64,000 bases of DNA, taken from Candidatus Shapirobacteria bacterium. GTDB lineage: Bacteria > Patescibacteriota > Microgenomatia > UM-FILTER-40-11. The DNA lies in assembly GCA_020059745.1 (NCBI GenBank), contig JAGVBK010000004.1, positions 242,511 to 306,510 on the forward strand. Reading direction: 5' to 3'. Below, piece after piece: positions 6,501 to 47,204 of this stretch (within the stretch, counting starts at the first letter, position 1; each line of letters begins with the position of its first letter). Under the pieces are notes generated by a model. That model had not been told where the DNA came from. It ran no database searches and saw only the letters and a list, made by a program, of their open reading frames with translations. Position numbers and translations under genes: made by a program.

Positions 6501-7362
6501 AGTTTTGGCGGCCCAATCAATCGGTGAGCCGGGAACTCAACTTACTTTAAGAACCAAGCACACAGCCGGTGTTGTTGGCTTGGATGTGACCCAAGGTTTG
6601 CCTAGGGTGACTGAGCTTTTTGAAATAAGAACTCCAAAAATTGTATCTCCTTTGGCAGAGATTTCCGGAAAGGTTCAGATAGTTTCTGAAGAAGGTGGTT
6701 ATAAAATTATCGTTAAAGAAGGCAAAAAAGACGGTGAAGTCAGGGAATACGTTGTTCCTTTAACGAGTACGCTTAAGGTTGAAGACGGCGAAGAAGTTTT
6801 AGCCGGTACTCAGCTTGCCTCAGGGGCTCTTGAGGTAAGAAATATTCTTGATGTCAGGGGTCTCAGGGAAGCTCAAAAATACCTGGTTGATGAAATTCAA
6901 GCGGTTTATGAATCGCAGGGAATTCCGATTAATGACAGGCATTTTGAGACAATAGTGAGAATGATGAGCGAAAATGTAAGGATTAAAAATCCGGGTGACA
7001 CCTCTTTCCTTCCGGGCGACTTAGTTAACAAAAGAAGGCTTGAAGCGGAAAACAGTGTTATTCGGGAAAACAATGGCAATCCAGCCACAGCTGAGCAGAT
7101 AATTTTGGGAATTACCAGAGCAGCCTTGTTTACCGAATCATGGCTTTCAGCTGCTTCGTTTCAGGAAACAAGCAACATTCTTGCTGACGCTGCCATGATT
7201 GGCAAAAAGGATGACCTCTTAGGCTTAAAAGAGAATGTTATTATTGGTAGGCTCATTCCTGTTTCTCCTGAACGGGCGAAAATTCCGGTTAGAGAAGAGG
7301 CGGTGCCAGAAGAAGAAATAGCTGAAACAGTCCCCGCTGCTCCGGGAGGCGTTAAAATTTAA
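3592..7362 (+). CDS. rpoC: DNA-directed RNA polymerase subunit beta'
   Basis: 1256 aa; N-terminal Zn-finger CYCGKYKRIRYRGIVCDKCGVEV and catalytic NADFDGD motif; sits immediately after rpoB. Confidence 0.97.
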   Translation: MIKGIADFKSLTIKVASPEEIHAWSHGEVTKPETINYRTLKPEKDGLFCERIFGPTKDWECYCGKYKRIRYRGIVCDKCGVEVTLSRVRRERMGHIDLATPVAHVWYFRGIPSRLSILLDIPAKSLETVVYFAQYLVTEVEEDKRKEALEKLAENYREKEELVQKETEERTAQLKKDYEKDKESLKEKIQNKEAYSLAEKELELTRKQKEKWIEDRANTELAKLKEELSILSDRVKGLRELSVISEEDYLKLRDVNAAGFFKVGMGAESILEVIKKINIEKLAEELKEEVKSSSGQRHIKAVKRLRLVEGMLRSSQSPSSLILTVLPVIPPDLRPMVQLTGGRFATSDLNDLYRRVINRNNRLKHLIDLGAPEIILRNEKRMLQEAVDSLIDSNKSVRERRARRTPTLRSLSDMLRGKQGRFRQNLLGKRVDYSGRSVIVVGPELNLNQCGLPKEMALEMFKPFVLREMIVRGVAPNVKSAKNILERRPPEVFDILEEITKDHPILLNRAPTLHKLGIQAFYPILIEGSALRLHPCVCQGYNADFDGDQMAVHVPLSQKARSEAINLMMPAHNMLRPADGTPINAPDRKEMALGTYYLTSLDPTLKAKEKVFLPEEAITAYQSGKIKGREPVKVRLPNAEVVETSVGRIFFNEALPECLRFVNTAVKQSTIKEIFTKAMKVCTHEEVVMLIDNLKNFGFFGGSVSGISLSIKDCEMSPEKDEIIKAAEKRVAEIEDTYRQGLITLEEEKRLIRGIWMETTEELADKTWDIIGETNPIRLVIDARVGRVSRDTIKQISAMRGLVVDPMGRIVDLPTKSNFRQGLSVFEYVTTTRGSRKGLTDSALKTSDAGYLTRKLVDVSHEAIIREEDCGTKDGVEITKEGLRGKAFGARILGRFTAEPVIDPKTKKTLVERNEEIDEEKAKQLEENAAITKVVVRSPLTCEARYGLCVKCYGWSFANRATVKLGVPVGVLAAQSIGEPGTQLTLRTKHTAGVVGLDVTQGLPRVTELFEIRTPKIVSPLAEISGKVQIVSEEGGYKIIVKEGKKDGEVREYVVPLTSTLKVEDGEEVLAGTQLASGALEVRNILDVRGLREAQKYLVDEIQAVYESQGIPINDRHFETIVRMMSENVRIKNPGDTSFLPGDLVNKRRLEAENSVIRENNGNPATAEQIILGITRAALFTESWLSAASFQETSNILADAAMIGKKDDLLGLKENVIIGRLIPVSPERAKIPVREEAVPEEEIAETVPAAPGGVKI

Positions 7363-7399: not shown

Positions 7400-7813
7400 A
7401 TGCCAACGATATCACAACTTATCAGAAAAGGAAGAAAAAAGTTGCCAAAAAAAGTAAAGGCAACAGCTTTAAGACGCTCGTTTAACTCAAGAACAAGAAG
7501 AATGAACGAGTCAACAAATCCTCAAAAAAGGGGTGTAGTAACTTTGGTCAAAACAATGACTCCCAAAAAGCCGAACTCAGCTTTAAGAAAAGTAGCCAGG
7601 GTCAGGCTTTCCAACAAACAGGAAGTTACTGCCTATATTCAAGGAATTGGTCATGATATTTCCGAACATGGTATTGTCCTAATCAAAGGGGGTAGAGTCA
7701 GAGATTTGCCGGGAGTTAAATATCATGTTGTTAGAGGTAAATTTGACGCCGGTGGTGTTGTCGGCAGAAAAAGCAGTCGTTCAAAATACGGAACCAAAGG
7801 CGGAGGCGCATAA
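7400..7813 (+). CDS. rpsL: 30S ribosomal protein S12
   Basis: 137 aa; [12 protein letters not shown]-terminus and [10 protein letters not shown] motif. Confidence 0.95.
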
Positions 7814-12055: not shown

Positions 12056-12967
12056 TCAGAAGTTGGGGAGTTCTGATCGCCATTGGACAATGCGGAGCAG
12101 GGGTTCAGCCAGGAAAGCGGTGCAGAGTACCATTGGAATGGTGTCTGACATCACGCCGATGGCGAAGAACCCGGCCCACCAAGGAACTCCTCCTGCAGTA
12201 GTGACATTGAGCGAGGCGCCGACAAAAAAGGCCATGGTCACGCCAGCGACCAGGTTCACGAGCGCGCACTTGACGACCCATCGCCTTCTGTTCTCCTGAA
12301 TGTGGGAGAGAAGTTCCTGGCGGCTTTTTCCTCCACGGAGAATCACGGCAATGGCTGAGCCGGTGAGTGCACCGACAAGGATGCCGTCAACCACTGGGGT
12401 GTGGGGCAAAATCCAGTAGCCTGCCAGCAATGCCCAGGCTATCGAGCCCAGGTAGCCGGCAAGGAACCCGGTGGCTCTGCCAAAGACCAAGGCAACAAGG
12501 CCTGGTACAAAGGCAAAGGTTCGTAGGTGGACTGCCCCGGGGATGATCGGGACCGGCGAAAGAAACATCCAGCTGAACGCAGTAAGACCGGCCATTACAG
12601 CACCGATAAGCAAACCTTTTCTGACATCAGCAGGATCAGCGCTTTCTACCAATCCCCAGTTTCGTAGTTGACTCATCAGAGCGTACCAGTTCCCGAGTTT
12701 GGTGAGTCTGATGGCGACCAGTACCAACCCCATAGCGAACACTGCCCAAACCACGTAAGTGATGGGGTAGCTAGCCTGCTCCATCCAGGCAAGCCACGAG
12801 GGGACCTTCAGTTGGGCAACGCGCTGAAGAAAGGAAGAGATTGCCTCCCTTCCAAGCGTGGTGACGGAGATGACCAAAAGAAGGAGAACCAGAAGCCCTG
12901 CGAGGATCAGGGGAACCCGATCCTCTCTACCGACGTCTACTCTTCGAGCTGCTGTTCTCGTTGCCAC
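12056..12967 (-). CDS. Integral membrane protein, putative ECF substrate-binding (S) component
   Basis: Highly hydrophobic, about 58% GC; strong SD aaaggagg 8 nt upstream of the GTG at 12967 (the ORF track's longer version starts at 13009); family not recognized. Confidence 0.45.
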   Translation of the reverse strand: MATRTAARRVDVGREDRVPLILAGLLVLLLLVISVTTLGREAISSFLQRVAQLKVPSWLAWMEQASYPITYVVWAVFAMGLVLVAIRLTKLGNWYALMSQLRNWGLVESADPADVRKGLLIGAVMAGLTAFSWMFLSPVPIIPGAVHLRTFAFVPGLVALVFGRATGFLAGYLGSIAWALLAGYWILPHTPVVDGILVGALTGSAIAVILRGGKSRQELLSHIQENRRRWVVKCALVNLVAGVTMAFFVGASLNVTTAGGVPWWAGFFAIGVMSDTIPMVLCTAFLAEPLLRIVQWRSELPNF

Positions 12968-13009
12968 GGTCTGCCTCCTTTTTGAGACATAGAGAATTGC
13001 GGAATGCAC

Positions 13010-13910: not shown

Positions 13911-13939
13911 TTGCTTTGGAAATGGATTTTTGTTAAAAT
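13911..13939 (+). promoter_or_regulatory. Sigma70-like promoter TTGCTT-17-TAAAAT for fusA
   Basis: ttgctt at 13911-13916, 17-nt spacer, tgttaaaat extended -10. Confidence 0.45.
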
Positions 13940-13982
13940 GTTTTTTGAAGATAGTCTTTTTTATTGACTTTCAAAGCGGTGC

Positions 13983-14013
13983 TCCGCTTAAAAAGAGGCG
14001 GAGTTCTTTTTTT
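13983..14013 (+). terminator. Leader hairpin plus U-run (attenuator) in the fusA 5' UTR
   Basis: ctccgc ... gcggag stem followed by ttcttttttt; the overlapping alternative stem aagcgg/ccgctt shares the ccgc segment. Confidence 0.45.
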
Positions 14014-34196: not shown

Positions 34197-35201
34197 ATGA
34201 AAATTCTTAAAGCTTTTTTATTGCTTGTTTTTGCTTTGCTTGCAGGTTTTTCTTTTTGGTTTTACAGAGAGTTTAGCGGACCAGCCAAAGAAGCTCAAAA
34301 CCAAAGGTTTGTTATTAGTCTTGATACTAAAGAAGAAGAAGTTATTGAAAGGCTTTATAGTGAAGGCTTTTTAAAAAACAAAACCATTTTTAACCTGATT
34401 TTGGATTTTAAGGGCTGGAGGGGAAAGATTGAACCTGGAGCTTATTATCTTTCTAAAGCCATGAATGCATATGAGCTTGCCGGGACGCTTGCTTATGGCC
34501 CGGTCCAAAAATGGGTGGTTATCCCGCCGGGAAAGAGAAAAGAGCAGACGGCCCTTATTCTAAAAAAAGCCTTAAATTGGCCGGATGACATGACTATAAA
34601 TTTTATCACCGTTGCCGAGGAAGGATATCTTTTTCCGGATACCTATCTTATCAATACCGATGCTACGCCTGAGGAAGTTTTTAAAAAACTGAAAGGAAAT
34701 TTCAATGAAAAGTTCAGTGCTGAAATTCAACAAGGCCTGCTTTTGAAAAACATAAGAAATGATACGGCCATTAAAATTGCTTCGCTTATTGAAAGAGAAT
34801 CAGGCGGAGACAGTGATAAGCCGATAATTGCAGGCATTATTTTAAACAGAATAAAAAAAGAAATGCGGCTTGAGATTGACGCCACAGTTCAATATGCTTT
34901 GGCAACAGAAAATTGCTCGCTTTCCTCAAAAAACACAGAAAGCCACCCTTTATTTGAATGCGATTTTTGGCCAAAGCTTCCAAGCGGCTTGGTTAGAAAA
35001 GTAGATTCTCCCTTTAATACCTACCGGATTGATGCCTTGCCGCCTGCACCTATTTGCTCCCCCGGTCTTGCCTCAATAAAAGCAGTGGCTTTTCCGGCGG
35101 AAACAGAGGCCTTTTACTACCTTCACTCTCAAGATAGGCAAATCCATACTGCCGAAACCTACGAAGAGCACAAAGAGAATATAAAAGAGTATTTGGATTA
35201 A
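34197..35201 (+). CDS. mltG: Endolytic murein transglycosylase MltG (YceG family)
   Basis: N-terminal TM helix plus a YceG-like domain. Confidence 0.75.
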   Translation: MKILKAFLLLVFALLAGFSFWFYREFSGPAKEAQNQRFVISLDTKEEEVIERLYSEGFLKNKTIFNLILDFKGWRGKIEPGAYYLSKAMNAYELAGTLAYGPVQKWVVIPPGKRKEQTALILKKALNWPDDMTINFITVAEEGYLFPDTYLINTDATPEEVFKKLKGNFNEKFSAEIQQGLLLKNIRNDTAIKIASLIERESGGDSDKPIIAGIILNRIKKEMRLEIDATVQYALATENCSLSSKNTESHPLFECDFWPKLPSGLVRKVDSPFNTYRIDALPPAPICSPGLASIKAVAFPAETEAFYYLHSQDRQIHTAETYEEHKENIKEYLD

Positions 35202-35278
35202 TGTCGCCAACGAGCGAAAAATCTTGAACTGTTGACAGATACCATTTTAACACACTGGAAACCGCCCACTTTTGACAT

Positions 35279-35511
35279 AACAAAGGTTATTTTGGATGAA
35301 AAATACAAGTATGAGGGCTTGGGAAACGGTGGATTTACGTATCAATACTAATATGGTGATGACTATTGAACTTATTATTTTGGATATTAGTTTTACAGAA
35401 GTATCCGCCCACCTTTACCATCACTTATGGTATAAGCATTAAGTTTTCTTAACTCTTCACTTACGGAGACTTTTAGTAAGGTTCTTACTAATGAAACAAA
35501 GGTTATTTTGG
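35279..35511 (+). repeat. 17-bp perfect direct repeat aacaaaggttattttgg (35279-35295 and 35495-35511)
   Basis: Identical 17-mers 216 bp apart near the left end of the island. Confidence 0.6.
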
Positions 35512-35593
35512 TCAAATCTACATTATCCACTTGGTCTACTGGAGGCGTGTTATTTTCGTTAGCATGGAGAGTATTATTCTCTTTTAGTCCCAT
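35393..35593 (-). CDS. Hypothetical small protein
   Basis: ORF-track ORF only. Confidence 0.2.
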   Translation of the reverse strand: MGLKENNTLHANENNTPPVDQVDNVDLTKITFVSLVRTLLKVSVSEELRKLNAYTISDGKGGRILL

Positions 35594-35668
35594 GCTTCAA
35601 TTTTCATTGTTGCAACGCACTTTTACTATTAGAGGATACTGAAGAAAAGTGAGGAAACTGAGGAGAAA

Positions 35669-36043
35669 TTAACCCATTACGATTATTTTTTGGTCATCAT
35701 CTATAACAAGTTTTGCACCTCGCCATGTTTCTATAGACATTGGTAGCCCTTTTAACTCCAAACGTAGGTGGTTTATTTGTCTCTGTATCCCTTGGTTTAC
35801 TCTTGCCCGTTTCCCTTGGGGCGGATAGTGAGGGTTATAACTTGTCTTGTAAATCTCCTCATAACTACACAGATTGTTGGCATTGTAAAAAAGATGGATA
35901 AAGATTGCACACCGTACCGTTTTACTATCCTTAAAAGTGTGGACGAGTTTCTTCTTATGGTATAAGAATACGCTCCGACCGTCCGTCTCTAGTTTCCAAC
36001 TGTTCAAAGTCACCTTTTTATTAGGAAATACAATAACGTGCAT
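35669..36043 (-). CDS. Winged-helix DNA-binding protein (OmpR/PhoB-type trans_reg_C domain)
   Basis: C-terminal ...INHLRLELKGLPMSIETWRGAKLVID matches the trans_reg_C wing/recognition helix pattern. Confidence 0.5.
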   Translation of the reverse strand: MHVIVFPNKKVTLNSWKLETDGRSVFLYHKKKLVHTFKDSKTVRCAIFIHLFYNANNLCSYEEIYKTSYNPHYPPQGKRARVNQGIQRQINHLRLELKGLPMSIETWRGAKLVIDDDQKIIVMG

Positions 36044-36075
36044 ATTTATATTTATCTTTGTTTACATTATACCAA

Positions 36076-36099
36076 TGAGGCGCCTCAATCTGATATAAT
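36076..36099 (+). promoter_or_regulatory. 12-bp perfect palindrome TGAGGCGCCTCA (candidate operator) followed by TATAAT
   Basis: Palindrome at 36076-36087 and tataat at 36094-36099, in the divergent region between the winged-helix gene and the downstream structured element. Confidence 0.35.
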
Positions 36100-36139
36100 T
36101 TGGGTAACGACCTAAACTCGTAGCAATACGGGCATGGTT

Positions 36140-36280
36140 AAAACCAAAACCCACCATAGGGGAACGAGCGCTCCTCGTTCAGCGTACCTATGGTGGGTCA
36201 CAATCCGAAAGGGTTGTGTGTAGCCGAAAGGCTATGGCGCTGGCGGGGGGCGCTTATTGCGTTTACCCACCTCGCCGACC
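36140..36280 (+). ncRNA. Candidate structured RNA (GC-rich; nested inverted repeats plus two GNRA-tetraloop hairpins), unclassified
   Basis: cccaccatagg ... cctatggtggg 11-bp stem enclosing a gaacgag/ctcgttc hairpin; caatccGAAAgggttg and tagccGAAAggcta tetraloop hairpins; GC well above surroundings. Confidence 0.3.
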
Positions 36281-36328
36281 CTACGCAAATTATTAGTAGT
36301 AATTTGCTACAGAAAGGAAGGTGAGACT

Positions 36329-36535
36329 ATGAGAAAAACCGTACGCTACAAAAAGGGAGACATTGTAGGTAGAAAGTTAAAGGAAGCCACTCTGTTAAGG
36401 GGTTGGAAAATTGTTGAGGAAAAAGAAACAGGAGGATTTAGTGCTGGCAAAGGATTTTTATTAGGTCTGATATTTTTACCTCTAGCCCTTTTTGGTTTTG
36501 GAACTTATGTAGAAGTAACATACGAAAAACAGTAA
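36329..36535 (+). CDS. Small membrane-anchored protein (68 aa, C-terminal TM helix)
   Basis: aaaggaagg RBS; basic N-terminal half; C-terminal hydrophobic helix FLLGLIFLPLALFGFGTYV. Confidence 0.4.
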   Translation: MRKTVRYKKGDIVGRKLKEATLLRGWKIVEEKETGGFSAGKGFLLGLIFLPLALFGFGTYVEVTYEKQ

Positions 36536-36665
36536 ACATTAGTAAGCCTTAATAAATACCCTTCTCAAAATTAGCGAGAGGGGTATTTTTTTGGGCAAAT
36601 TACTAGCAAAGCGCTGGTTTTAGTTCGGTGTTTTCACCAAAAGAAGGATTTTTTATAATATAAAC

Positions 36666-36965
36666 ATGGGTAGAAGTATGAGAGGTGATTACGTAGAGAT
36701 GTTTAAGTTTTACTTTATGGGTATGAGAACTGATACAAATCTATCAATGGATATAGTTGACCCTCTTACCCGTGAAGTTAAACATTTTTCATTGCCTCAA
36801 TATAAGAGAACTAGTTATAGAGATGTAGCAAGGCATTTTGGCTATAGCGTAAGGCAGATTGAAAAAATTGGGAAAAAATACAAGTGGTATTTACAGCGTA
36901 AGTATTTTCATCTAAAAGTTATGAACCGCTTACCGTGGGATAAGGAGTGGATTTACAAAAGTTAA
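36666..36965 (+). CDS. Small helix-turn-helix-like protein
   Basis: SYRDVARHFGYSVRQIEKIGKK resembles a sigma70 region-4/HTH segment. Confidence 0.35.
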   Translation: MGRSMRGDYVEMFKFYFMGMRTDTNLSMDIVDPLTREVKHFSLPQYKRTSYRDVARHFGYSVRQIEKIGKKYKWYLQRKYFHLKVMNRLPWDKEWIYKS

Positions 36966-38293
36966 GCAACTTGTGGTTGTTCTATTAACCAACCGTTTTG
37001 CTTTAAGAAAGCCTTTAATAATTCGTTACTTACATCTTCATAGCCTAAGCTCCAATAGATTTCTTTTATAAAGTTAATAATATAGCCTTGAAGTGCCAAG
37101 TCGTCATATAAAAGAGACGTCTCTATTTCAACTCGCCAAATGTATTTATTCTTTAGTGGCACTTCCTCGTCCTCATGCCAGAACAAACCACCTCTGTAGC
37201 CGTTAGGAACAATACGTTTTAATTGCGCCCCATTTATACCATCTAGTTCTAAATACCCATAAATAGCCCCTTGATAATTAAACAGCTTATAAAAGTTCTT
37301 TAATGCCTTTAGAAACATGATGTAGTACACAGCTATTGCTTCTATATAAATATGCTTTCTTGTAGCGTCTTGGCGCAGTACGTTTTCTGCTAAATACATT
37401 AAGCCTGCCGAAAAGACCTGCTGGCAACTCAAACCGCCATCATAATTATGCTGGAAACGATAGACGCCCTCTTGAATTGGTTTAAGATTTAGGTCTGGGA
37501 AATCTGTACTACCCTTACGATACCTAATTTGTTCAATCTTGGTCTTTATATCATTTGGGTTGCAAAGCGCTCTTTGTGGATAGTAAGGCTGTAAAAGAAT
37601 AGTTAGCATAGAAACCTCCGTGCCTAAAGGTTTCTGGTAATACTGTGAGTTATATTCTGGCGGTTGTTGGCCTTGTGCTTTAGCTTTCTCTATTTGTTTT
37701 TGGTAATTGGCTTTTTCAACTGCTATAAGTTTTAGACGTTTTCTTTCTTCTGCTTTAAGTCCAGCCTCATAATTTTCTTTAGCAATCCTTATATAGTTTT
37801 CTCTTGCTAACCTTGCCTTATCTTTTTTACCTACTAATAACTCTACAGCTTCTGGACTAGCAAGGCTAATTGGGTCTGTAATGTTTCCACTACGAACATA
37901 GATATTAGCCTCATTGTGGACATAATAGGGCGTTCTATCTCCCTCGTAAATCCTTACTAATATAAATACTTTTCCATTTACTTCATTGGTTACGTGCAAG
38001 TCGTAGAGCGGTCTTGGGTCTACTGAAGTAGCATATTGATGTATTTTATCCGCTAACTTGCTATCAAAAGTAATGCCGTCAAAAACTACTGGTTTACCAG
38101 ATTTGTCCTCTTCTACGCCTACTATGATTACGCCACCTCTGCTATTGGAGAATGAGGCAAAATGCTTGGCTAAACCCTTACTTGGAAGTTCTTTTTTGTA
38201 ATCTAACTGAAATCCCTCAATGTAACCCTGTTTACAGAACTCAACTACCTCTTCAAATGTAAAAGTATCTATAGGTTTGCTTAGTATTTGCAT
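36962..38293 (-). CDS. AlbA_2 (Schlafen-like putative DNA-binding) domain protein with a coiled-coil linker and an uncharacterized roughly 230-aa C-terminal domain
   Basis: N-terminal FEEVVEFCKQGYIEGFQLDYKKEL...FSNSRGGVIIVGVEED matches the AlbA_2 pattern (E..E.K ... N..GG.i.iGv.d); EKR-rich coiled coil at about aa 150-215. Confidence 0.6.
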   Translation of the reverse strand: MQILSKPIDTFTFEEVVEFCKQGYIEGFQLDYKKELPSKGLAKHFASFSNSRGGVIIVGVEEDKSGKPVVFDGITFDSKLADKIHQYATSVDPRPLYDLHVTNEVNGKVFILVRIYEGDRTPYYVHNEANIYVRSGNITDPISLASPEAVELLVGKKDKARLARENYIRIAKENYEAGLKAEERKRLKLIAVEKANYQKQIEKAKAQGQQPPEYNSQYYQKPLGTEVSMLTILLQPYYPQRALCNPNDIKTKIEQIRYRKGSTDFPDLNLKPIQEGVYRFQHNYDGGLSCQQVFSAGLMYLAENVLRQDATRKHIYIEAIAVYYIMFLKALKNFYKLFNYQGAIYGYLELDGINGAQLKRIVPNGYRGGLFWHEDEEVPLKNKYIWRVEIETSLLYDDLALQGYIINFIKEIYWSLGYEDVSNELLKAFLKQNGWLIEQPQVA

Positions 38294-38321
38294 AATTCAA
38301 TGTCATGAAATTGAGTTAGTT

Positions 38322-40577
38322 TTAGCTTCTAAAGCGTAGTTTAATATAATCCTGTGCTTGTGAGCCTTGCAGTTCAGAGGTAGAGTTACCAGCACGGACA
38401 TAGAAGCGCTGACTTTGACCGTCCTTAACGTAGATAGGTACTCTAGATGGCAAGCAATCTATAGCCAGCATACGCTTGCCCTCATGGTCTTCAAATCTTG
38501 GGTGGAGGTATACCGTCCAATGTGAGCCTATCCTGTCATTAAGCAGATTTACTAAATGTAAATGTAATTTATCATCGTTTTCAAAGCCGTCTACACTTAA
38601 ACCTAATGCTTCTTTATCGTCTGAAACACCGATTAGAAGCGTCCCACCTTTACTATTTAGAAAACCAGCAATAGTTTTTAGTACGCTTAGTTCTATTCTT
38701 GGGTCTGGTTGTCCAGTATGCAAATTGGTTCTTAGAGTGGACTTAAACTCAACTGCACCCGTCTCACCTTGCGCAATAATATCAGCGATTGATAAATGAG
38801 ATATTTCATCTTCTTGTTTTAGGTCTGATTTTAGCTTGTGGTATGCGTCTGCAATTATCTGTGAAATACGCTCTCTTCTTCTCATTAAAAACTCTCTGTA
38901 CTCCATTTCTTCCCAATTATCTGGGAGACCGTGCCAGTAATACATCTTTTTAATTTCTTGAGGTGAAAAGCGAGATACTATTTGTGGTACATACTCCTTA
39001 GGGTCTGTATCAGAAATTGCGGAGTTATCATTCCATTCCACAATTGCATAGTTAGCAATTTGGTTAGTGTCTCTAAGGTCTATTATGCCTTGGGTTTTTA
39101 GATATGCTTTGGGGTACAGATGATGTCTCTCCAGAGCCGAGCGAGTGGACTTAATGGAAGCGTCTATTAAATCTGCAACTTTTTGCTTTGAAAATAATGC
39201 GTCTGCCTCTAGTAACACCAACGAAGCATAAAAGGCAAAAAGAGACGGGCTACGTGGTGAGGATGTAGCAAGGCTATTTGGTAAATTGATAGACCAATAG
39301 TCATCCGTAAATACTTCCGCACAAATACGCTCTAACTCACCTATAAACTCGTCTGCCTCTATTACATTTCTAAACCGTGCTAAATCAAACTCCATAGCGC
39401 TCTCTGGAGAGCCTGTAAATCGTCCTGTTAAGCTGGACATAAAGAACCAACGGGCGATTACTTGCCTTAACTTAAACTCTTCTACCTTGTACTCTGTACG
39501 CCCGATAAGGTAGAGAGTATAGGCAAACATTAAATTAGTCTGAGAACTTATGTAGTCACTATTACGGTAGCCAGATAGTGCTATAGCTTTGAGGAAATCG
39601 TGCCAGTAGGTAAGGTTTAATACACGGGATTGGGCATTCTTTAGTATTTCAAATTGGTCAATTCTTCTTTGCTCACTAAACTCACCCGTCTCCAAGTCCT
39701 TACCTCTTAAGATTGAATAGACGTAGTGCAATCTTGCTCTCTTAAAGCCTAAGCCAACACTTACTCTTAGCAATTGGTCTGGGTCTGGTTGAGAAACTAA
39801 ATTATAAGGGGATGGCTGACCAGTTGAGGGAGTTTTTGCCATACGGCAAAAGTCCTCTAGCATAGTCCTACCCTCATCCCAGAATACGGACATTAAAGTA
39901 AGAATAAAATCTGACTGATTAAGTGGTTTACCCTCACTATTTATACGGACAAATATCTCTGCCACTTGCTCCTCTGTAATAGCAGACGATAATTCCAATG
40001 CCGTAAAAGGGAAATTAAGTAGGTTAGATAGTCGTGTAATTGACTGTCGTATTTTCTTTACATCTTCTGGCGTAAGGTTAGCAACCTCCTGATTATTCTG
40101 GATATACGTATCTACAAGTTCAAAAATATCTGTAGATTTATTCCAGAGCATGGAGATATTGGGGATATAAGACCTATCTTTTTTAATGGCGGCGTCCGAA
40201 ACTGCAAAGCGTTCCGTGATAGGATTAAATGATATTTCTATCTTTTCCTTTTGGTAATTTTCTCTCACCACCTCTACACCTTGGATAACGGCAAAGAGTG
40301 ATGTAAGTCTTTGTTGACCATCTACAATAAGTAATCTTGCAGGTTTTTGCTTGGTGTCTGCTCCAATTTGTCTTGCTTCCTCAACAAAAGCATTTTGCCA
40401 AAATAGTAAGTAGCCAATGGGGTAACCCCGATACATACTGTCAAAGAGGTCTCTAACTTTGGTATCTTTCCAGACAAAAGGTCGCTGTATGTCTGGCAAG
40501 CCTATTTCGCCCATCTCAATATAGTTGACGAGCGTACCCAAGTCGTAGCGTACTTCTTTGAATAATCTATCTGCCAT
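38322..40577 (-). CDS. GmrSD-family type IV restriction-like nuclease (DUF262 + DUF1524) fused to a C-terminal AlbA_2/Schlafen-like domain
   Basis: DUF262 motifs IQRPFVW and DGQQRLTSL; HNH-like DUF1524 segment ERHHLYPKAYL...NYAIVEWNDN; C-terminal GETGAVEFKSTL...IAGFLNSKGGTLLIGVSDD AlbA_2 signature. Confidence 0.7.
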   Translation of the reverse strand: MADRLFKEVRYDLGTLVNYIEMGEIGLPDIQRPFVWKDTKVRDLFDSMYRGYPIGYLLFWQNAFVEEARQIGADTKQKPARLLIVDGQQRLTSLFAVIQGVEVVRENYQKEKIEISFNPITERFAVSDAAIKKDRSYIPNISMLWNKSTDIFELVDTYIQNNQEVANLTPEDVKKIRQSITRLSNLLNFPFTALELSSAITEEQVAEIFVRINSEGKPLNQSDFILTLMSVFWDEGRTMLEDFCRMAKTPSTGQPSPYNLVSQPDPDQLLRVSVGLGFKRARLHYVYSILRGKDLETGEFSEQRRIDQFEILKNAQSRVLNLTYWHDFLKAIALSGYRNSDYISSQTNLMFAYTLYLIGRTEYKVEEFKLRQVIARWFFMSSLTGRFTGSPESAMEFDLARFRNVIEADEFIGELERICAEVFTDDYWSINLPNSLATSSPRSPSLFAFYASLVLLEADALFSKQKVADLIDASIKSTRSALERHHLYPKAYLKTQGIIDLRDTNQIANYAIVEWNDNSAISDTDPKEYVPQIVSRFSPQEIKKMYYWHGLPDNWEEMEYREFLMRRRERISQIIADAYHKLKSDLKQEDEISHLSIADIIAQGETGAVEFKSTLRTNLHTGQPDPRIELSVLKTIAGFLNSKGGTLLIGVSDDKEALGLSVDGFENDDKLHLHLVNLLNDRIGSHWTVYLHPRFEDHEGKRMLAIDCLPSRVPIYVKDGQSQRFYVRAGNSTSELQGSQAQDYIKLRFRS

Positions 40578-40671
40578 ATTTATCTTTATAACTATAGTCC
40601 AAAGTCTTTAACACTTGTATTTAATCGGTTGATTTTTTGTAACAAATGCTAAATAATGATAAATAGATTAT

Positions 40672-40839
40672 ATGGCAAAAGATGACCTTTTTTCAATAGA
40701 AGAAGTAGCTAAAACGCTTAAAGTCTCATACATAACCGTTTACAGGTGGATTAGGGCTAACAAACTGCCGTCTGTTAAGGCGGGTAAGCAATATAGAATA
40801 AAAAAAGTAGACCTAGACGCTTTTCTAAAAGTTAAATAA
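40672..40839 (+). CDS. Excisionase/AlpA-family helix-turn-helix protein (HTH_17-like)
   Basis: 55 aa; SIEEVAKTLKVSYITVYRWIRANKLPSVKAGKQYRIKKVDLDAF matches the excisionase-family HTH pattern; not in the ORF track (under 60 aa). Confidence 0.55.
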   Translation: MAKDDLFSIEEVAKTLKVSYITVYRWIRANKLPSVKAGKQYRIKKVDLDAFLKVK

Positions 40840-40847
40840 AGATAAAT

Positions 40848-42698
40848 ATGAGCGACCAAAACAACAAAATTAACAAAAAAGTTGAAATTGACTTGAGTGA
40901 GCTACTTAAAAAGGATGCTCCCTATCTTGTAGAAGATGGCAAGGTAAACATAGAAAAATTAAAAAGCTTACTAACTGGCAAAACTACCGAAAAAGAAGAC
41001 GATAGATTTTATTTTAACTGGGCTGGCAAGGATAAAGTTTTCCAAGCAATCCAAGCACCCGCATTCTCAACTCTAGCGCCTCAAAAGGACAAATCTATTG
41101 GTTGGGACGAGACCGAGAACTTAATGATAGTAGGTGAAAATCTAGAGACCTTAAAACTCCTCCTAAAACCCTACTTTGGCAAAGTTAAAATCATTTATAT
41201 TGACCCACCCTACAACACAGGTAAAGACTTTATCTACAAAGACGACTTTTCCGCACCTCTTAAAGACTACCTAGAGCGTACGGGACAAAAAGGAACCGCT
41301 GGAGAAAGACTAACGACTAATTCAGAAACTAACGGGCGCTACCATTCCGACTGGCTTAATTTCATGTACCCTCGTTTATTTATGGCTAGAAATCTACTAC
41401 GTGAAGATGGACTAATTTTTGTTTCAATTGACGAAAATGAACATCAACATTTAAGAATGCTTATGGATGAGGTTTTTGGCGAAGATAATTTTATTGCAGA
41501 ATTAGTCTGGCAAAAGAAAAAAGGCGGAAGTAATGACGCAAAATACATAGCTTTAGAACATGAGTATGTAATTTTTTATGCAAAAACCAAAACTACATTA
41601 GAAAAATTATTTATACCCCACACTGAAGAATATCTAGAGAGGTACAACCAAGAGGATAAAATAGGGCGTTTTTATTGGGATACATTCAAAAGAAAAAGTG
41701 GAAAGCAGTATTACGCAATAAAAGCACCAGATAATACCAAAATAGAGTTTGATGAAAACAATAACCGTATAAGTTGGTTAAGGTCAGAAAAAAGATTTTT
41801 AGACGACTTAGAAAAGGGTGAGGTTAAGTTTGAAAAAAATGGTGACGGATGGTCTGTGTTATTCAAACAACGGGAGCCAAAGGGTAAAAAACCGAGAAGT
41901 TTAATGACCGACGTAGGAACAACAAGTGCTGGAAGTGATGAGTTGCTGGATATTTTTAAGAAAAACATATTTGATAATCCCAAACCCTCTACACTAATCA
42001 AGCATATTCTAAGCATTTCACAGGATAAAGACGCTGTTGTGTTAGATTTTTTTGCAGGCTCTGGAACTACAGCAAAAGCTGTATATGAACTTAATAAGGA
42101 TGATGAGGGTTTTAGAAAATACATCTTAGTCCAAATCCAAGAGCCAGTAGACATCAGCAAAGAAACTGGCAAAAACGCAAAGGAATTAGGTTTTAATTCT
42201 GTAGATGAAATTTGTGTTGAAAGAATAAAACGAGAAAATGAAAAGCTAAAGGGAAGTAAAGGAGATATTGGGTTTAAGGTGTTTAAGCTATCTCACTCAA
42301 ACTTTAACCTAAAGGAAGAGTTTGAACTAACCGAGAATAAAGACTTGGGAGAGTTAAAAAGTAACTACCTAAAAGAGTTAGGACTTTATGTAGACCAGCC
42401 CACCGTAGCTACAGCAAATACTTTGGATATCGTCTACGAGATAATCTTAAAAAATGGCTTTTCTCTTAACTCCAAAATTGAAGAATTAAAACTAGGGTCT
42501 AATAGTTTCTATAAGGTAAACGACGCCGAAAACGAGCTGGAGATATACATATCTTTAGACGCAAAAATTGAGGATGGGTCTGTAGAGGCTATACGCACCA
42601 CAGAGTACAAAGGCAAGACGTTTGCATTTTATGACAACGCCCTCACCGATAGCCAAAAGATAAACCTCAATACTTTTGTGAAATTGCAGGTAATTTAA
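40848..42698 (+). CDS. mod: Type III restriction-modification Mod subunit (N6-adenine DNA methyltransferase, beta class)
   Basis: Motif IV IYIDPPYN precedes motif I DFFAGSGTT; adjacent to a helicase-nuclease gene. Confidence 0.85.
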   Translation: MSDQNNKINKKVEIDLSELLKKDAPYLVEDGKVNIEKLKSLLTGKTTEKEDDRFYFNWAGKDKVFQAIQAPAFSTLAPQKDKSIGWDETENLMIVGENLETLKLLLKPYFGKVKIIYIDPPYNTGKDFIYKDDFSAPLKDYLERTGQKGTAGERLTTNSETNGRYHSDWLNFMYPRLFMARNLLREDGLIFVSIDENEHQHLRMLMDEVFGEDNFIAELVWQKKKGGSNDAKYIALEHEYVIFYAKTKTTLEKLFIPHTEEYLERYNQEDKIGRFYWDTFKRKSGKQYYAIKAPDNTKIEFDENNNRISWLRSEKRFLDDLEKGEVKFEKNGDGWSVLFKQREPKGKKPRSLMTDVGTTSAGSDELLDIFKKNIFDNPKPSTLIKHILSISQDKDAVVLDFFAGSGTTAKAVYELNKDDEGFRKYILVQIQEPVDISKETGKNAKELGFNSVDEICVERIKRENEKLKGSKGDIGFKVFKLSHSNFNLKEEFELTENKDLGELKSNYLKELGLYVDQPTVATANTLDIVYEIILKNGFSLNSKIEELKLGSNSFYKVNDAENELEIYISLDAKIEDGSVEAIRTTEYKGKTFAFYDNALTDSQKINLNTFVKLQVI

Positions 42699-42701
42699 CC
42701 T

Positions 42702-45308
42702 ATGCTAAAGCTCAAGTTTAACCCCAACCTAGACTATCAACAGGACGCTATAAAAGCTGTAACTGATATTTTTGAGGGACAGGTAAAGGTAGAGAAAAAG
42801 CATATTTTCCAAGTCATACCGAACAAACTTACCTTAGAAAAAGACACACTCCTTACAAACCTCCAGACGGTACAGGAAAACAACCATCTAGCCAAAAGCC
42901 CAGACTTTTCTGTACCCCTTAACGTAACTCTAGAGATGGAAACGGGTACAGGCAAAACCTATGTGTATCTACGCACTATCTTAGAACTTTACCAGAAGTA
43001 CGGGCTATCCAAGTTTATTATCGTCGTCCCTACGGTAGCAATTAAAGAGGGTATTATGAAGTCCCTAGCTATCACCAAAGACCATTTTAAGGGTCTCTAT
43101 AACAACTTATCCTACGAATACTACGAGTATGTATCTACTAAGCTCATGACCGTCCGTATGTTTGCGCAGTCCTCTCACTTGCAAATTATGGTCATCACAA
43201 AAGACGCTTTTAATAAAGATAAAAATATCATCCATAACAACCATGACCGTATGGGCGATAAACCAATTTCGCTTATCCAAAAGACTAACCCTATCGTTAT
43301 TCTAGACGAACCGCAAAAGATGGGCGGAGAGGCTACTCAATGGGGCATAAAAGAGCTTAACCCCTTAATCGTACTTAGATACTCTGCAACCCATAGGGAT
43401 ATTGAAAATCTAGTCTACAAACTTACTCCTTTTGACGCCTACGCAAAAGGTTTAGTAAAAAAGATTGAGTTAGCAACCGTCGTAGAGGAAAGCGACCCAA
43501 ACACTAAAAAAATTATCCTAGAAAACATCTACTCCTCTGGAAGTAGCCTAAAGGCAAAGTTAAAGGTTTTCATAAAGCAAGCGACGTCTGTACAACTAAA
43601 AACCATTACCGTAGGCTCTGGTGATAACTTGGCTACTAAGTCAAAAAATCCCTACTATGATGGGTTTACCGTTTCTGAAATTAACCTAGGCAATAACTAT
43701 ATCCTCTTCTCAAACGGATTAAAGGTACACGTAGGACAATCGTCCGTAAATGAGGATGAGATTGTACGAATGATGGTACGAGAGATAGTCTTAGAACACT
43801 TGGAAAAAAAGCGCAAGTTTAACCCTCTGGGAATTAAGACCCTTTCTCTCTTCTTTATCCACCGTGTAGACGATTATTTACCCGCCGACGGCTGGCTACG
43901 GAAAATGTTTGAGGAAGAGTACCAAAAGGCTACTAGCACCAATTACCAAGAGTTTAAGACCGCCAGACCAGATAAGGTACATTCTGGGTACTTTTCCGAG
44001 ATGAAAAAAACCTCATCTATAGAAAATGACGAAAAAGCATATGAGCTGATTATGAAAGATAAGGAAAAACTACTCTCCTTAGATAACCCCGTGGAGTTTA
44101 TCTTTTCCCATTCTGCCTTACGTGAGGGCTGGGACAACCCAAATATCTTTAATATCTGCACCCTTGCCTACTCAACCTCTGATATTAAAAAAAGGCAGGA
44201 AATTGGACGTGGGCTACGTTTGGTTGTAAACCAGCAGGGAGACCGCATTTACGACCGAGATATAAACGTACTTACCGTAGTTACCAACGAAAGCTACCAG
44301 AATTATGTATCTGAATTGCAGACCGAGTTTAGGGATGAAGCAGGAGAAAGCGCCCCACCTGTAGAGCATAAGAAAAAACGAGTTAGCCTAACCCTAAAAG
44401 ATGACGCATTAGCTAACAAGAGCTTCCAAAGCCTTTGGAAGCTACTAGCAAAAAGGGCTAAGTTTGTTGTCTCTATGCAAGAAGAGGAAATAATCAGTAA
44501 GTGTGTAGATGAAATTAACAAAATTGACGAAAGTAATATCCGAGAGATACGGGTACACATTACTAAAACAGGTATAGACACGCTTCTCTTGGATGACATT
44601 AGGGGTAATATCGTAAGCGACCGAAGCTACGAAATCGGAGCCACCAAGCAACTACCTAACATTATTGCCCTCCTCCAAGCTGATACTAAGCTCACAAAGA
44701 AAACCCTACTAGCCATACTGCAAAAGGTAAATAATTTTGACCTGTTTTTCAAAAACTCCTACCAGTATGCAAGCCTCGTTTCCTACGCCATTAAAACCGT
44801 CATATCAGACCTAGCCTCTAAAGGTATTAGCTACGTAGAGATTAGCGACGATTACGGGCTATCGCTTTTTAATAAGGAAGTCCAGACCTACGAAAAATAC
44901 CTAGTAAAGCTAGAGAGTGCCAAAACGCTCTACAAAACAACCAACAACGGACAAAAGGACGCCGTGATAATTGACCCCAGTCCGTCTTTAGAGGGCGTAT
45001 CACAACCAGAAAAAAGGTTTGCCGAGAACGCAGACCGTAACGATACCGTTAAGTTTTTCTTTAAGCTCCCAGATACTTACTCTATAGCTACCCCAGCAGG
45101 GCAATATACGCCAGATTGGGCGGTAGTAGTGGAAAATGGCGACCATAACCAAGTCTATTTTGTAGCTGAAACCAAGGATACTAATAACATTAGTAGTCTC
45201 CGTCAAGAAGAGCAAATAAAAATACTCTCTGCACGGGCTATGTTTAAGGAAATCATGCCAGAGGTCGTTTTCAAAGCTCCCGTAAGCGAGTTTAGCGACC
45301 TTTCATGA
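42702..45308 (+). CDS. res: Type III restriction enzyme Res subunit (SF2 helicase + PD-(D/E)xK nuclease)
   Basis: Walker A ETGTGKTY; DEAH-like ILDEPQK; C-terminal PDW...VAETKD nuclease motif. Confidence 0.8.
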   Translation: MLKLKFNPNLDYQQDAIKAVTDIFEGQVKVEKKHIFQVIPNKLTLEKDTLLTNLQTVQENNHLAKSPDFSVPLNVTLEMETGTGKTYVYLRTILELYQKYGLSKFIIVVPTVAIKEGIMKSLAITKDHFKGLYNNLSYEYYEYVSTKLMTVRMFAQSSHLQIMVITKDAFNKDKNIIHNNHDRMGDKPISLIQKTNPIVILDEPQKMGGEATQWGIKELNPLIVLRYSATHRDIENLVYKLTPFDAYAKGLVKKIELATVVEESDPNTKKIILENIYSSGSSLKAKLKVFIKQATSVQLKTITVGSGDNLATKSKNPYYDGFTVSEINLGNNYILFSNGLKVHVGQSSVNEDEIVRMMVREIVLEHLEKKRKFNPLGIKTLSLFFIHRVDDYLPADGWLRKMFEEEYQKATSTNYQEFKTARPDKVHSGYFSEMKKTSSIENDEKAYELIMKDKEKLLSLDNPVEFIFSHSALREGWDNPNIFNICTLAYSTSDIKKRQEIGRGLRLVVNQQGDRIYDRDINVLTVVTNESYQNYVSELQTEFRDEAGESAPPVEHKKKRVSLTLKDDALANKSFQSLWKLLAKRAKFVVSMQEEEIISKCVDEINKIDESNIREIRVHITKTGIDTLLLDDIRGNIVSDRSYEIGATKQLPNIIALLQADTKLTKKTLLAILQKVNNFDLFFKNSYQYASLVSYAIKTVISDLASKGISYVEISDDYGLSLFNKEVQTYEKYLVKLESAKTLYKTTNNGQKDAVIIDPSPSLEGVSQPEKRFAENADRNDTVKFFFKLPDTYSIATPAGQYTPDWAVVVENGDHNQVYFVAETKDTNNISSLRQEEQIKILSARAMFKEIMPEVVFKAPVSEFSDLS

Positions 45309-45469
45309 TTAGTCAAAAAAGTGTAGACGAGTTAAAGAAGATATTTAAGGAGGAGTACAAATCCGACTTAACAGACGAGGAAGCCAAGGAAACGGGTCAA
45401 AAGTTGGTGGACTACTTTAGTCTTTTAATAGAGATTGATAAAAAGGCTAAAATTGTTAGGAAAAAATGA
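45305..45469 (+). CDS. Hypothetical 54-aa protein overlapping the res stop (ATGA)
   Basis: Open frame with start-stop overlap coupling; no recognizable family. Confidence 0.25.
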   Translation: MISQKSVDELKKIFKEEYKSDLTDEEAKETGQKLVDYFSLLIEIDKKAKIVRKK

Positions 45470-45478
45470 AATATAAAT

Positions 45479-47035
45479 ATGTATGAAGATACAGAAGAAA
45501 TTGACATTACTAAACTCAAATACGTGCTGTATGCCCGCAAGTCCACGGATGACAGCTCCCGCCAGTTAAGGTCTATTGACGACCAAATAGCCGAATGTTT
45601 AGCACTTGCAAGGAGGCTAAATCTTAATGTTTCTCAACCCATAATAGAAACCAAATCTGCTAAAAGACCTAATCAACGCCCCTTATTTAGACAAATCCTA
45701 AGTGATATTAGAAAAGGCGTCTATGATGGTATCTTGGCGTGGAACCCAGACCGCCTTGCACGAAATATGAAAGAAGGTGGAGAAATCATAGACATGATAG
45801 ATGAAGGGTATATAAAAGACCTCAAGTTTGTCACCCACCATTTCACAAGCGACGCTAACGGAAAAATGTTACTTGGTATGGCTTTTGTGTTATCAAAACA
45901 ATACTCTGACGACCTTTCCCAAAAAGTTACCCGTGGAGTACGCAGGAGTTTTGCAGAGGGTAAGTCCCCAGTCCCTAAACATGGGTATATAAGAGACGAG
46001 AACGGCGTATATGTACCCGACCCAGTTACCTATCCTTTGATTGTTAAAGCATGGGAAATGCGAGCAGAGGGAACGAGCATAGAAGAAATTGTTAAATACT
46101 TAAATGACAACAGCTATAGACGTATTGTCAAAAAATCAGGTCGTAAAGTCAAAATGACGAAACAAATCCTTAGCGACCTGTTTAACGACCCTTTTTACTA
46201 TGGTGTCCTAATGCAAGCAGGAGGAGAAGCAGACTTAATAAACCTTAATAACTTCCAACCAGCTATAGATAAGGCTACGTATATTAAAGTACAAAGTCTA
46301 GCTTACCGAAAGATTAAGCCTAATAAGCAACATAAAGTAGCCTTTTATCCTTTAAGAGCTATGGTGGTTTGCTTATATTGTGGTAGAAATATGTACGTAG
46401 CACCCTCCACAGGACACACAGGGCAAAGATACCTAAATTACAGGTGTGATAACGATGGTTGTACAAGACCTAAGAAATCCATACGAGCTAAGGTGATTTT
46501 TGATTTTATTTATCAATACCTAGAAGACGGTCTTAATTTTACGGAAGAAGATTACAACCTCTACTACAAAGACCTAGAAAAAATTACAGAAGAAAAGCGT
46601 GAGCAAATTAGAATGAAAATACATTCAAAACGAAGTGTACTACTTAACGCAAGAAGAGACCTTAAAGACCGTGCATTAGCTCTTACCGACTTAAATAACA
46701 AAATTAGCGATACAGTTAGGAAAGTAACAGAGGATAAAATAGCTGAATTGAAAAACCTAGAAATAGACTTAACTGAGGAGATTGCTGAACTAGAGAAGCA
46801 AATTAGAGACCCCGAAGAGGACAGACTGACCCTCCAGCAATTCTTGAACTTGTCAAAAAATGCCTCTGTTATCGTCCAATCTGCCGATGTGGTAGTGAAA
46901 GATGAGATATGCCGACTTATATTCTTGAACTTAACAGTTGATGAGGAGAAAGTGGCGTCATATCAACTAAAAGAACCGTTTGCGACACTCCTAAAACACC
47001 GCCAAATCGTATCTAGTCGGGGAAGCGGGACTTGA
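45479..47035 (+). CDS. Large serine recombinase (resolvase/invertase N-terminal domain + recombinase domain + zinc ribbon + coiled coil)
   Basis: YARKSTDDSS...SIDDQ catalytic-serine motif, DRLARN, zinc ribbon CLYCGRN...YRCDNDGC, C-terminal coiled coil. Confidence 0.85.
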   Translation: MYEDTEEIDITKLKYVLYARKSTDDSSRQLRSIDDQIAECLALARRLNLNVSQPIIETKSAKRPNQRPLFRQILSDIRKGVYDGILAWNPDRLARNMKEGGEIIDMIDEGYIKDLKFVTHHFTSDANGKMLLGMAFVLSKQYSDDLSQKVTRGVRRSFAEGKSPVPKHGYIRDENGVYVPDPVTYPLIVKAWEMRAEGTSIEEIVKYLNDNSYRRIVKKSGRKVKMTKQILSDLFNDPFYYGVLMQAGGEADLINLNNFQPAIDKATYIKVQSLAYRKIKPNKQHKVAFYPLRAMVVCLYCGRNMYVAPSTGHTGQRYLNYRCDNDGCTRPKKSIRAKVIFDFIYQYLEDGLNFTEEDYNLYYKDLEKITEEKREQIRMKIHSKRSVLLNARRDLKDRALALTDLNNKISDTVRKVTEDKIAELKNLEIDLTEEIAELEKQIRDPEEDRLTLQQFLNLSKNASVIVQSADVVVKDEICRLIFLNLTVDEEKVASYQLKEPFATLLKHRQIVSSRGSGT

Positions 47036-47089
47036 ACCCACGACCTCACGCACCCCATGCGTGCGCGCTACCAACTGCGCCATTCCCCG
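47017..47089 (-). tRNA. tRNA-Pro (anticodon GGG)
   Basis: Minus-strand cloverleaf: acceptor CGGGGAA/TTCCCCG, D-arm GCGC-AGTTGGTA-GCGC, anticodon arm CACGC-ATGGGGT-GCGTG, T-arm GTGGG-TTCAAGT-CCCGC; the 3' end overlaps the recombinase stop. Confidence 0.85.
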
Positions 47090-47204
47090 TTTTTTATGTT
47101 TTTTTGGAATTTCTCTCTTGTATTTTACCAGGTTTTGTGCCAGAATGTAAGCAAGTTTGAGCCCAGGAGTTAAAATTATGAGTCGACAAAAAAAGGAGAA
47201 CAAC

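Follow-up and report, generated by a model that had tools for sequence, protein, structure and literature searches.

Results

The inserted element and its host setting

The window analyzed here is a 64,000-nucleotide stretch of contig JAGVBK010000004.1 (assembly GCA_020059745.1) from Candidatus Shapirobacteria bacterium, a candidate-phyla-radiation (CPR) bacterium of the Microgenomates type, and the same locus is also present as GCA_003599075.1 QZIO01000014.1. It contains an inserted element of ~11.8 kb (35203–47017) between mltG (YceG), which ends at 35201, on the left and tRNA-Pro(GGG), recA, recX, and rny on the right. The right end of the element carries the truncated open reading frame (ORF) of a large serine recombinase (LSR; 45479–47035, plus strand, 518 aa), which runs into the host tRNA-Pro(GGG) gene (47017–47089, minus strand; 47016–47089 by ARAGORN and 47017–47089 by Rfam). 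At the left end lies a 3' piece of the LSR gene that is separated from the rest; it consists of 48 codons (RQRAKNLELLTDTILTHWKPPTFDITKVILDEKYKYEGLGNGGFTYQY) and a stop codon at 35349–35351 (together 35205–35351, plus strand) and continues the reading frame of LSR codon 513 across attP, the predicted recombination site of the element. The original prediction, made from the letters of the window alone, had proposed an integrated ~11.8-kb island between mltG and recA and had overlooked the detached LSR piece.

The G+C content is nearly unchanged across the island, and because its profile gives no usable shift, codon usage was used instead. Compared with the 59 other ORFs of the window, the island ORFs differ strongly in pooled synonymous codon usage (chi2 = 628, 41 df, p = 5e-106). 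CTA makes up 25.7% of leucine codons in the island versus 6.7% in the host, TAC is used at 51% versus 35%, and ACG at 17% versus 7%, while CTT falls to 18% from 39%. The predicted codon shift thus holds for the enrichment of CTA, TAC, and ACG and the depletion of CTT; TTA, which had been listed as a host-preferred codon, is not one (23% in the host and 31% in the island). In a leave-one-out analysis, the log-likelihood ratio was positive for all eight island ORFs and negative for 58 of the 59 host ORFs.

Close relatives with an empty site were located through their RecA homologues; the mltG relatives among GTDB species representatives had at most 46% identity, none with recA downstream, and were uninformative for the empty site. 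In the relative L119 (RecA 91% identical), the gene order is L13–S9–two ORFs–mltG–167 nt–recA, and the insert is absent. A blastn comparison of the window with L119 aligned up to 35200 and resumed at 47110, so that 167 nt replace 11.9 kb. L118 (RecA 94% identical) has the same empty arrangement, although there an HNH-repeat gene separates mltG from the tRNA. The adjacency of mltG and tRNA/recA in relatives, which the original prediction had named as a check on the insertion, was therefore found in L119 and, in similar form, in L118. The additional L118 gene (4524–5288, minus strand) encodes a 254-aa HNH_repeat protein and is absent from L119.

A sister element is present in another species (GCA_002433895.1; loci L029, L031, and L041), where the backbone is 85–86% identical at the nucleotide level and the adjoining recA is only 68% identical. 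On its left, L029 is flanked by a SpoU methylase gene instead of mltG. The left flank of a third copy, L123, differs from both, and a Type I/IIG-like restriction–modification (R-M) system replaces the Type III system of the window. While the three left flanks differ, homology starts exactly at the same GTCG in all of them. Judging from these alignments, cargo is exchanged between otherwise near-identical backbones. Since codon usage, the empty site in relatives, and the sister elements agree, we regard window 35203–47017 as a horizontally acquired, integrated mobile element, as the original prediction had it.

A different defence island was seen in another relative (L120, 1–9320; RecA 87% identical), located 3' of tRNA-Pro(GGG) with no recombinase in view. 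Its genes encode an OLD-like ATPase, an N6/N4 methyltransferase, RadC, a helicase, and an HTH_17/MerR protein.

The recombinase

The truncated LSR ORF contains the Resolvase, Recombinase, and Zn_ribbon_recom domains. The Pfam Resolvase match covers residues 16 to 162 (6.6e-22), and the YARKS motif (R20, S22) is invariant in 33 family members. The AlphaFold2 (AF2) model of a full-length homologue, P0096, is confident to about residue 505 and shows long helices at residues 371 to 404 and 410 to 440. When this model was searched with Foldseek, it matched the full-length SPbeta, Bxb1, phiC31, and LI integrases with E values of 2.6e-17 to 1e-8, with a sequence identity to solved LSRs of only ~13 to 16%. 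Taken together, the domains, the predicted fold, and the site logic described below indicate that the enzyme is a large serine recombinase. Codons 1 to 513 are encoded by the element (to ~47017), whereas the last five codons and the TGA are read from the antisense strand of the host tRNA. This stop codon (47033–47035) falls in the tRNA T-loop, resulting in an overlap of 19 to 20 nt.

Junctions and half-sites

The left junction core, GTCG (35203–35206, plus strand), begins 1 nt past the mltG stop codon (35199–35201), coincides with the start of homology in L029 and L123, and marks attL, in which a host B arm meets the P' arm of the element. The right core, also GTCG (47016–47019, plus strand), marks attR, in which the P arm of the element meets the host B' arm; its GT is the complement of the discriminator A73 and the following base. 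The window and L029 are identical through ...atcgtatctagtcgg (...tagtcgg), after which different tRNA-Pro(GGG) bodies with compensating acceptor stems follow. Because identity ends there, the end of the element falls on the final one or two bases of the tRNA gene. This comparison identifies tRNA-Pro(GGG) as a host gene outside the island, with its 3' acceptor strand and T-arm serving as the B' half-site.

The two junctions share only GTCG (discriminator/first trailer base). Neither a displaced tRNA fragment nor a long direct repeat was found between the island ends, and the left end contains no stretch of 11 nt or longer that is identical to the tRNA. The original prediction had read the overlap as the classic reconstitution of a tRNA 3' end by the incoming element; no fragment is duplicated, however, and the overlapping sequence is host DNA. 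Its proposal to find attL and attR by aligning the ends succeeded to the extent of the shared GTCG core, with no tRNA fragment or long repeat. In a member that targets transfer-messenger RNA (tmRNA), L081, GTGG is present at both junctions, and tRNA-Leu members have GTGC. As GT is the sole dinucleotide common to the three target classes, the crossover most likely takes place at GT within GTCG.

A half-site consensus was derived from 18 aligned junction pairs. The P' half-site of attP (35203–35235, plus strand) follows the pattern GTCG-N6-AGCGA-N5-CTTGAACT, a consensus of 18 left junctions. Written out, the consensus of the left arm of the element (P') is GTCG.g....AGCGA..aAtCTTGAACT, and that of the tRNA side (B') is GTCGGGgtg.c.gGAcT.GAAC. 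The distance from GAAC to the G of GT is 18 nt in B', where GAAC lies in the tRNA T-loop, versus 23 nt in P', which amounts to a shift of 5 bp. For the Listeria integrase, Rutherford et al. described a zinc-ribbon motif that lies 5 bp nearer the center in attB than in attP (PMC3783163). The 5-bp geometry supports a true serine-integrase attP × attB pair, with the T-loop as the outer recognition motif. From the two ends, the attP sequence was deduced as caaatcgtatctaGTCGccaacgagcgaaaaatcttgaact, the circular junction is predicted to read ...caaatcgtatctaGTCGccaacgagcg..., and the empty site in the source genome is predicted to read mltG-taa-tGTCGGGGAAGCGGG. Catalysis of attP × attB recombination by this LSR is a prediction from these sites.

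The two empty-site relatives carry an identical 73-nt tRNA-Pro(GGG)-like cloverleaf (L119, 5650–5722, minus strand; L118, 5410–5482, minus strand). It has the D-loop AGAUAGUA and the T-loop GGCAGUA and lacks the CTTGAAC motif of B'. ARAGORN made no call for this gene and Rfam gave no match at E ≤ 1, and the sequence folds as a cloverleaf. The noncanonical T-loop could represent an escape from targeting; alternatively, the gene may be a pseudogene.

The recombinase tail

At the junction, the LSR reading phase is aGT|CGn, and the coding part of the tail covers 35205–35348. In all 19 mapped left ends, the frame in LSR phase remains open for 46 to 50 codons. The other two frames have medians of 9 and 7 open codons and reach the tail length at only one and none of the 19 ends, respectively; at a random position, the chance of 46 open codons is 0.22 per site. 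The tail peptide follows the pattern R..A.NLELLT..IL.HWK..FD...GF.Y.Y-stop. Comparing close pairs, synonymous and nonsynonymous codon differences number 8 and 2 between the window and L029, and 6 and 0, 7 and 3, and 11 and 6 in the others, with third codon positions holding 36 of the 49 substitutions in these four pairs. This pattern indicates that the tail is under purifying selection.

Un-split forms, in which LSR and tail are contiguous, were found in independent samples. These include P0096 (558 aa, on four contigs), P0108 (552 aa), the fragments P0241 to P0244, and the loci L095 and L097. A profile search with the C-terminus and tail returned only short fragments and few contiguous forms, and does not amount to a census of un-split copies. 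The open in-phase frame, the conserved tail, and the un-split ORFs together place attP inside the recombinase ORF. The overlap with the tRNA follows from this arrangement, since integration cuts the LSR ORF and reading then continues to the first in-frame stop, which in the antisense tRNA comes 2 to 17 codons on, depending on the host.

The loci of P0096 (L114 to L117) have neighbors encoding Replic_Relax, a DUF87 ATPase, NYN, a methyltransferase, and AlbA_2, with host-like metabolic genes on one side; this region may be plasmid-like or some other type of island. In addition, dozens of database "hypothetical proteins" of 70 to 210 aa (P0245 to P0285) are C-terminal fragments of this recombinase family that probably derive from decayed or tandem elements.

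Family and targets

A search with the LSR returned 1383 homologues at E < 1e-20, mostly 57 to 63% identical. The targets were surveyed in 80 metagenomic loci retrieved through this recombinase family. The recombinase ORF overlaps a minus-strand tRNA-Pro in 52 of them, with the anticodon GGG, TGG, or CGG, a tRNA-Leu in 3, and a tmRNA in at least 4, so that ~60 of the 80 adjoin one of these 3' ends. In most of the other loci, the recombinase abuts a P'-like arm, corresponding to tandem arrays or un-split forms. Because the overlap with tRNA or tmRNA genes is family-wide, that in the window, which had been predicted, is real and not due to chance. The mapped elements measure 2.9 to 11.8 kb, and no relatives of the LSR turned up when viral contigs were scanned. 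Small elements of this kind are common in CPR bacteria and are probably moved by a dedicated LSR clade.

The tmRNA and tRNA-Leu(GAG/TAG) ends lie at L081 (11516–11906), L084 (2067–2431), L087 (11565–11915), and L067 to L069. Two distinct LSR elements are arranged in tandem at one tRNA-Pro in L044 (9992–14987) and in L088 (738–8729). In both loci, the tRNA-proximal recombinase belongs to a clade that is only 36 to 37% identical, and the ORF in L044 crosses the entire tRNA. More distant recombinases end at tRNA-Asn (L003, 31% identical, 13938–14010) and tRNA-Gln (L040, 26% identical, 7502–7573). In L061, three tandem 114-bp units (6978–7320), each opening with the 3' 19 nt of tRNA-Pro (GTCGGGATGGTGGGACTTG), lie directly left of the left junction of the element (7321).

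Cargo and small ORFs

The cargo of this island is of the defence type. A Type III R-M methyltransferase gene (mod, 40848–42698, plus strand; PADLOC MTase_III 1.7e-163, Pfam N6_N4_Mtase) is adjacent to the gene of the restriction subunit (res, 42702–45308, plus strand; PADLOC REase_III 5.6e-219, Pfam ResIII and RE_endonuc), and the two together make up the Type III system that had been predicted at this locus. A 751-aa protein (38322–40577, minus strand) is a candidate defence protein with an N-terminal GmrSD_N (DUF262) domain (2.2e-33) and HEC-05 as its best PADLOC match. The proposed GmrSD-like nuclease was recognized correctly in its N-terminal part; the C-terminal nuclease domain of GmrSD (DUF1524, GmrD-like) was not detected, and AlbA_2 is in its place. 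Another cargo gene (36962–38293, minus strand) encodes a 443-aa Schlafen/AlbA_2-domain protein.

The excisionase-type regulator that had been suggested corresponds to a 55-aa HTH_17 DNA-binding protein (40672–40839, plus strand; Pfam HTH_17 3e-16), which also matches phrog_66, "excisionase and transcriptional regulator." HTH_17 proteins are encoded in 7 of the 19 mapped elements, and this one may act as a directionality factor. A 66-aa protein (o66 family; 35393–35593, minus strand) has homologues in 14 of the 19, often encoded just 5' of the LSR gene; it has no Pfam or PHROG match and may be a regulator or a directionality factor. No proteins other than these two and the recombinase are recurrent. 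The remaining small ORFs encode a 124-aa protein (35669–36043, minus strand), part of the backbone common to L029 and L123, with no family match in Pfam, PADLOC, and PHROG-type profile scans; a 99-aa protein (36666–36965, plus strand) that is conserved in L029 and L123 and resembles HTH_28 only weakly (E = 0.0024, which misses the Pfam cutoff); and a 54-aa product just 5' of the LSR gene (45305–45469, plus strand), also present in L029.

The structured RNA-like element noted earlier is a LOOT RNA (Rfam RF03000; 36109–36236, plus strand), which scores 73.9 bits (gathering threshold, 46.4) and covers the whole model (positions 1–121 of 121). LOOT is also present in at least eight other distinct loci with related elements; these counts are lower bounds, as our own covariance model was built on an imperfect RNAalifold structure. 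Directly 3' of LOOT in the window lies an ORF for a 68-aa protein with a hydrophobic segment (36329–36535, plus strand; a longer form with a TTG start begins at 36257). In 8 of 9 loci, LOOT is located directly 5' of an ORF for a small protein with such a hydrophobic, membrane-like segment (window, 36109–36535; L029, 910–1350; L040, 11655–12300; L061, 7948–8450; L068, 9194–8800; L094, 6796–6350; L088, 3458–4300; L108, 5862–5400). This arrangement suggests that LOOT is a cis-acting leader or a toxin-type module of these elements, rather than a free small RNA.

A 17-bp perfect direct repeat had been placed at the left end of the island, and it does exist there (35279–35295 and 35495–35511, 216 bp apart). 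The recombinase tail holds one copy, and the other falls within the 66-aa ORF, which is coded on the opposite strand. The repeat is rarer than chance (0.1 matches expected), and no role is evident. As an att site, it was rejected because both copies are internal and the first is not conserved in L029.

Elsewhere in the window, a gene for a 317-aa multi-pass membrane protein (12056–13009, minus strand) is the sole host ORF without a host-like codon score. It has a G+C content of 57% in a genome of 40% G+C and no Pfam match, and may be a separate acquisition.

Discussion

Our analysis of the window leads to a proposal in four joined parts, namely an integrated serine-recombinase element, a junction at the last bases of the tRNA gene, an attP within the recombinase ORF, and a conserved, detachable tail, which we consider jointly to be a likely description of the locus. 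According to this proposal, the LSR would recombine an attP that lies inside its own coding sequence, 48 codons ahead of the stop, with an attB whose center is the final base or bases of a tRNA gene (in the window, tRNA-Pro(GGG)). The P' arm would mimic B' with its outer CTTGAAC placed 5 bp further out, the usual spacing difference between attP and attB that the zinc-ribbon domain reads, and exchange would occur inside GTCG, most likely at GT. Integration would leave the tRNA intact without a tRNA copy carried by the element. Codons 1 to 513 would stay beside the tRNA, and the 48-codon tail would be moved 11.8 kb away, beside mltG. Excision would then restore the full-length gene. Of these points, sequence comparison shows the insertion, its junctions, the split of the gene, the selection acting on the tail, and the targeting of tRNA and tmRNA ends throughout the family.

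Several observations weigh against this proposal. All of the sequence data are metagenome assemblies, and the circular junction was not found for the window's own lineage. Symmetry of the att sites is seen on one side only, as the host-side B arm is unconserved and the P arm, which is coding, has no mirrored motif. Some of the "contiguous" copies could be tandem junctions, such as those in L044 and L088, where the end of the LSR abuts the P' arm of another element. The first ~9 codons of the tail overlap the P' site and could be conserved at the DNA level. Finally, in the AF2 model of P0096, the tail is a low-confidence helix behind a disordered linker, for which no structural role can be argued.

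The last two observations would also fit a 48-codon segment that is an independent small gene or conserved att-site DNA, with its LSR phase incidental, and in L040, L086, and L103 the segment can be called as an ORF of 44 to 46 aa from an internal start. Such a gene should not lack a conserved start codon, as this segment does, nor would its frame be expected to open exactly at the junction in all 19 cases. Fused ORFs exist, and conservation and third-position bias reach ~110 nt past a plausible 25-bp half-site, which makes this reading improbable. Still less probable is a classic island in a tRNA gene (tDNA), in which the element would carry a copy of the tRNA 3' end and the recombinase ORF would overlap that copy. 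The geometry at the right end is that of the usual tyrosine-integrase island (PMC4383910), with the recombinase adjoining the tRNA 3' end by an overlap of 19 to 20 nt. However, the left end holds the recombinase tail instead of a tRNA piece of 11 nt or more, and the sister elements diverge right after GTCGG into host-specific tRNA bodies with compensating acceptor stems. It is hardly credible that the region is vertically inherited core DNA of odd composition with a resolvase or invertase unrelated to its placement. This explanation would account for the indistinct G+C content and for the islands found at the same tRNA-Pro–recA site in several species, but it conflicts with the empty site in the closest relatives, the discordant identities of island and recA, the differing left flanks, and the distinct codon usage.

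A further alternative accepts the split gene and gives it another consequence. In "suicidal" integration of the SSV type, the truncated recombinase would be dead and the copy locked unless a full-length enzyme acted in trans. The architecture, with the att site in the enzyme's own ORF, is the same (PMC8371274), and tandem arrays and many decayed C-terminal fragments do exist. Against a dead enzyme, the truncated ORF retains all recognized LSR domains (residues 1–505 are modeled confidently), is intact in dozens of integrated copies, and has a tail that is still selected in these copies; we consider this outcome rather unlikely, yet a serious alternative. With every known domain retained in the truncated protein and so many intact copies, we favor a regulatory role, in which the tail would tune integration versus excision, or protein stability. 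Selection on the tail in integrated copies implies frequent passage through the joined state, and the truncated and full-length proteins presumably differ in activity. We suggest only tentatively that the split gene is a sensor of the state of the DNA, whereby the full-length protein (~561 aa) would be made only from the excised circle and the tail-less protein, which ends in a few residues encoded by the tRNA, only from the integrated copy; on balance, we consider this rather unlikely.

The proposed split-gene element can be compared with several known systems. The LSR shares with phiC31, Bxb1, A118/LI, and SPbeta SprA the domain order of a catalytic N-terminal domain, a recombinase domain, and a zinc ribbon with a coiled-coil insertion. 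Likewise, the serine integrases of phages and integrative and conjugative elements (ICEs) use short att sites with few identical bases and an outer motif 5 bp nearer the center in attB (PMC3783163). However, these enzymes are usually associated with protein-coding targets, whereas the present family targets tRNA and tmRNA 3' ends, with an attP in its own ORF and a conserved 48-aa tail that integration would remove. Unlike phage and ICE elements, its members are tiny (from 2.9 kb), with no relatives found in viral contigs.

The SSV-type integrases of archaea are tyrosine enzymes whose site lies within the integrase's own gene, an arrangement described as exclusive to archaea (PMC8371274; also PMC7253208). 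As here, the site is in the integrase ORF, a tRNA gene serves as the target, and the integrase gene is partitioned (PMC8371274, PMC7253208). The present recombinase is a bacterial serine enzyme and not a member of that group, so that the likeness lies in the gene partition only; moreover, the cut would remove only a C-terminal tail and keep all known domains. Islander-type tyrosine islands likewise occupy tRNA or tmRNA 3' ends with an adjacent integrase, defence cargo, and tandem arrays. Their signature, an intact tDNA plus a displaced fragment, was not found here, where the recombinase belongs to the serine family; there is no displaced tDNA fragment because exchange would occur at the last base or bases. 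In the integration-dependent immunity of mycobacteriophages, attP lies in the 3' coding region of the repressor, and integration into a tRNA gene by a tyrosine integrase alters the C-terminus of the protein, so that the two states yield different isoforms. In the system proposed here, by contrast, the affected gene is that of the recombinase itself.

The original prediction had called tRNA targeting by a serine recombinase unusual, which agrees with the literature. According to Hudson et al., tDNAs are "not known" to be targets of serine-family integrases (PMC4383910), and Mageeney et al. listed 14 of 297 computational tDNA cases for which "experimental proof will be required" (PMC7192596). 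Among tycheposons, a minority carry a large serine recombinase. In the open-access literature, we found no description of a tRNA-targeting or self-splitting design for serine integrases or for CPR bacteria. What stands out from the sequence comparison is a bacterial serine integrase family that targets tRNA and tmRNA ends and splits its own gene.

Large DNA cargo is inserted mainly with serine integrases, whose targets have been regarded as protein-coding or arbitrary. A large natural LSR clade that acts on tRNA and tmRNA ends with a readable half-site logic would provide a test bed for a universally conserved target. A self-cut recombinase gene in a bacterial serine enzyme would also make state-dependent control of directionality directly testable. 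If the tail favors attP × attB recombination, or destabilizes the enzyme, and its loss permits attL × attR recombination, the state of the DNA itself would set directionality; if the split gene does act as a state sensor, directionality would not rest on a separate directionality factor alone. For CPR bacteria, whose mobile elements are poorly known, this family would represent a major vehicle of defence-gene exchange.

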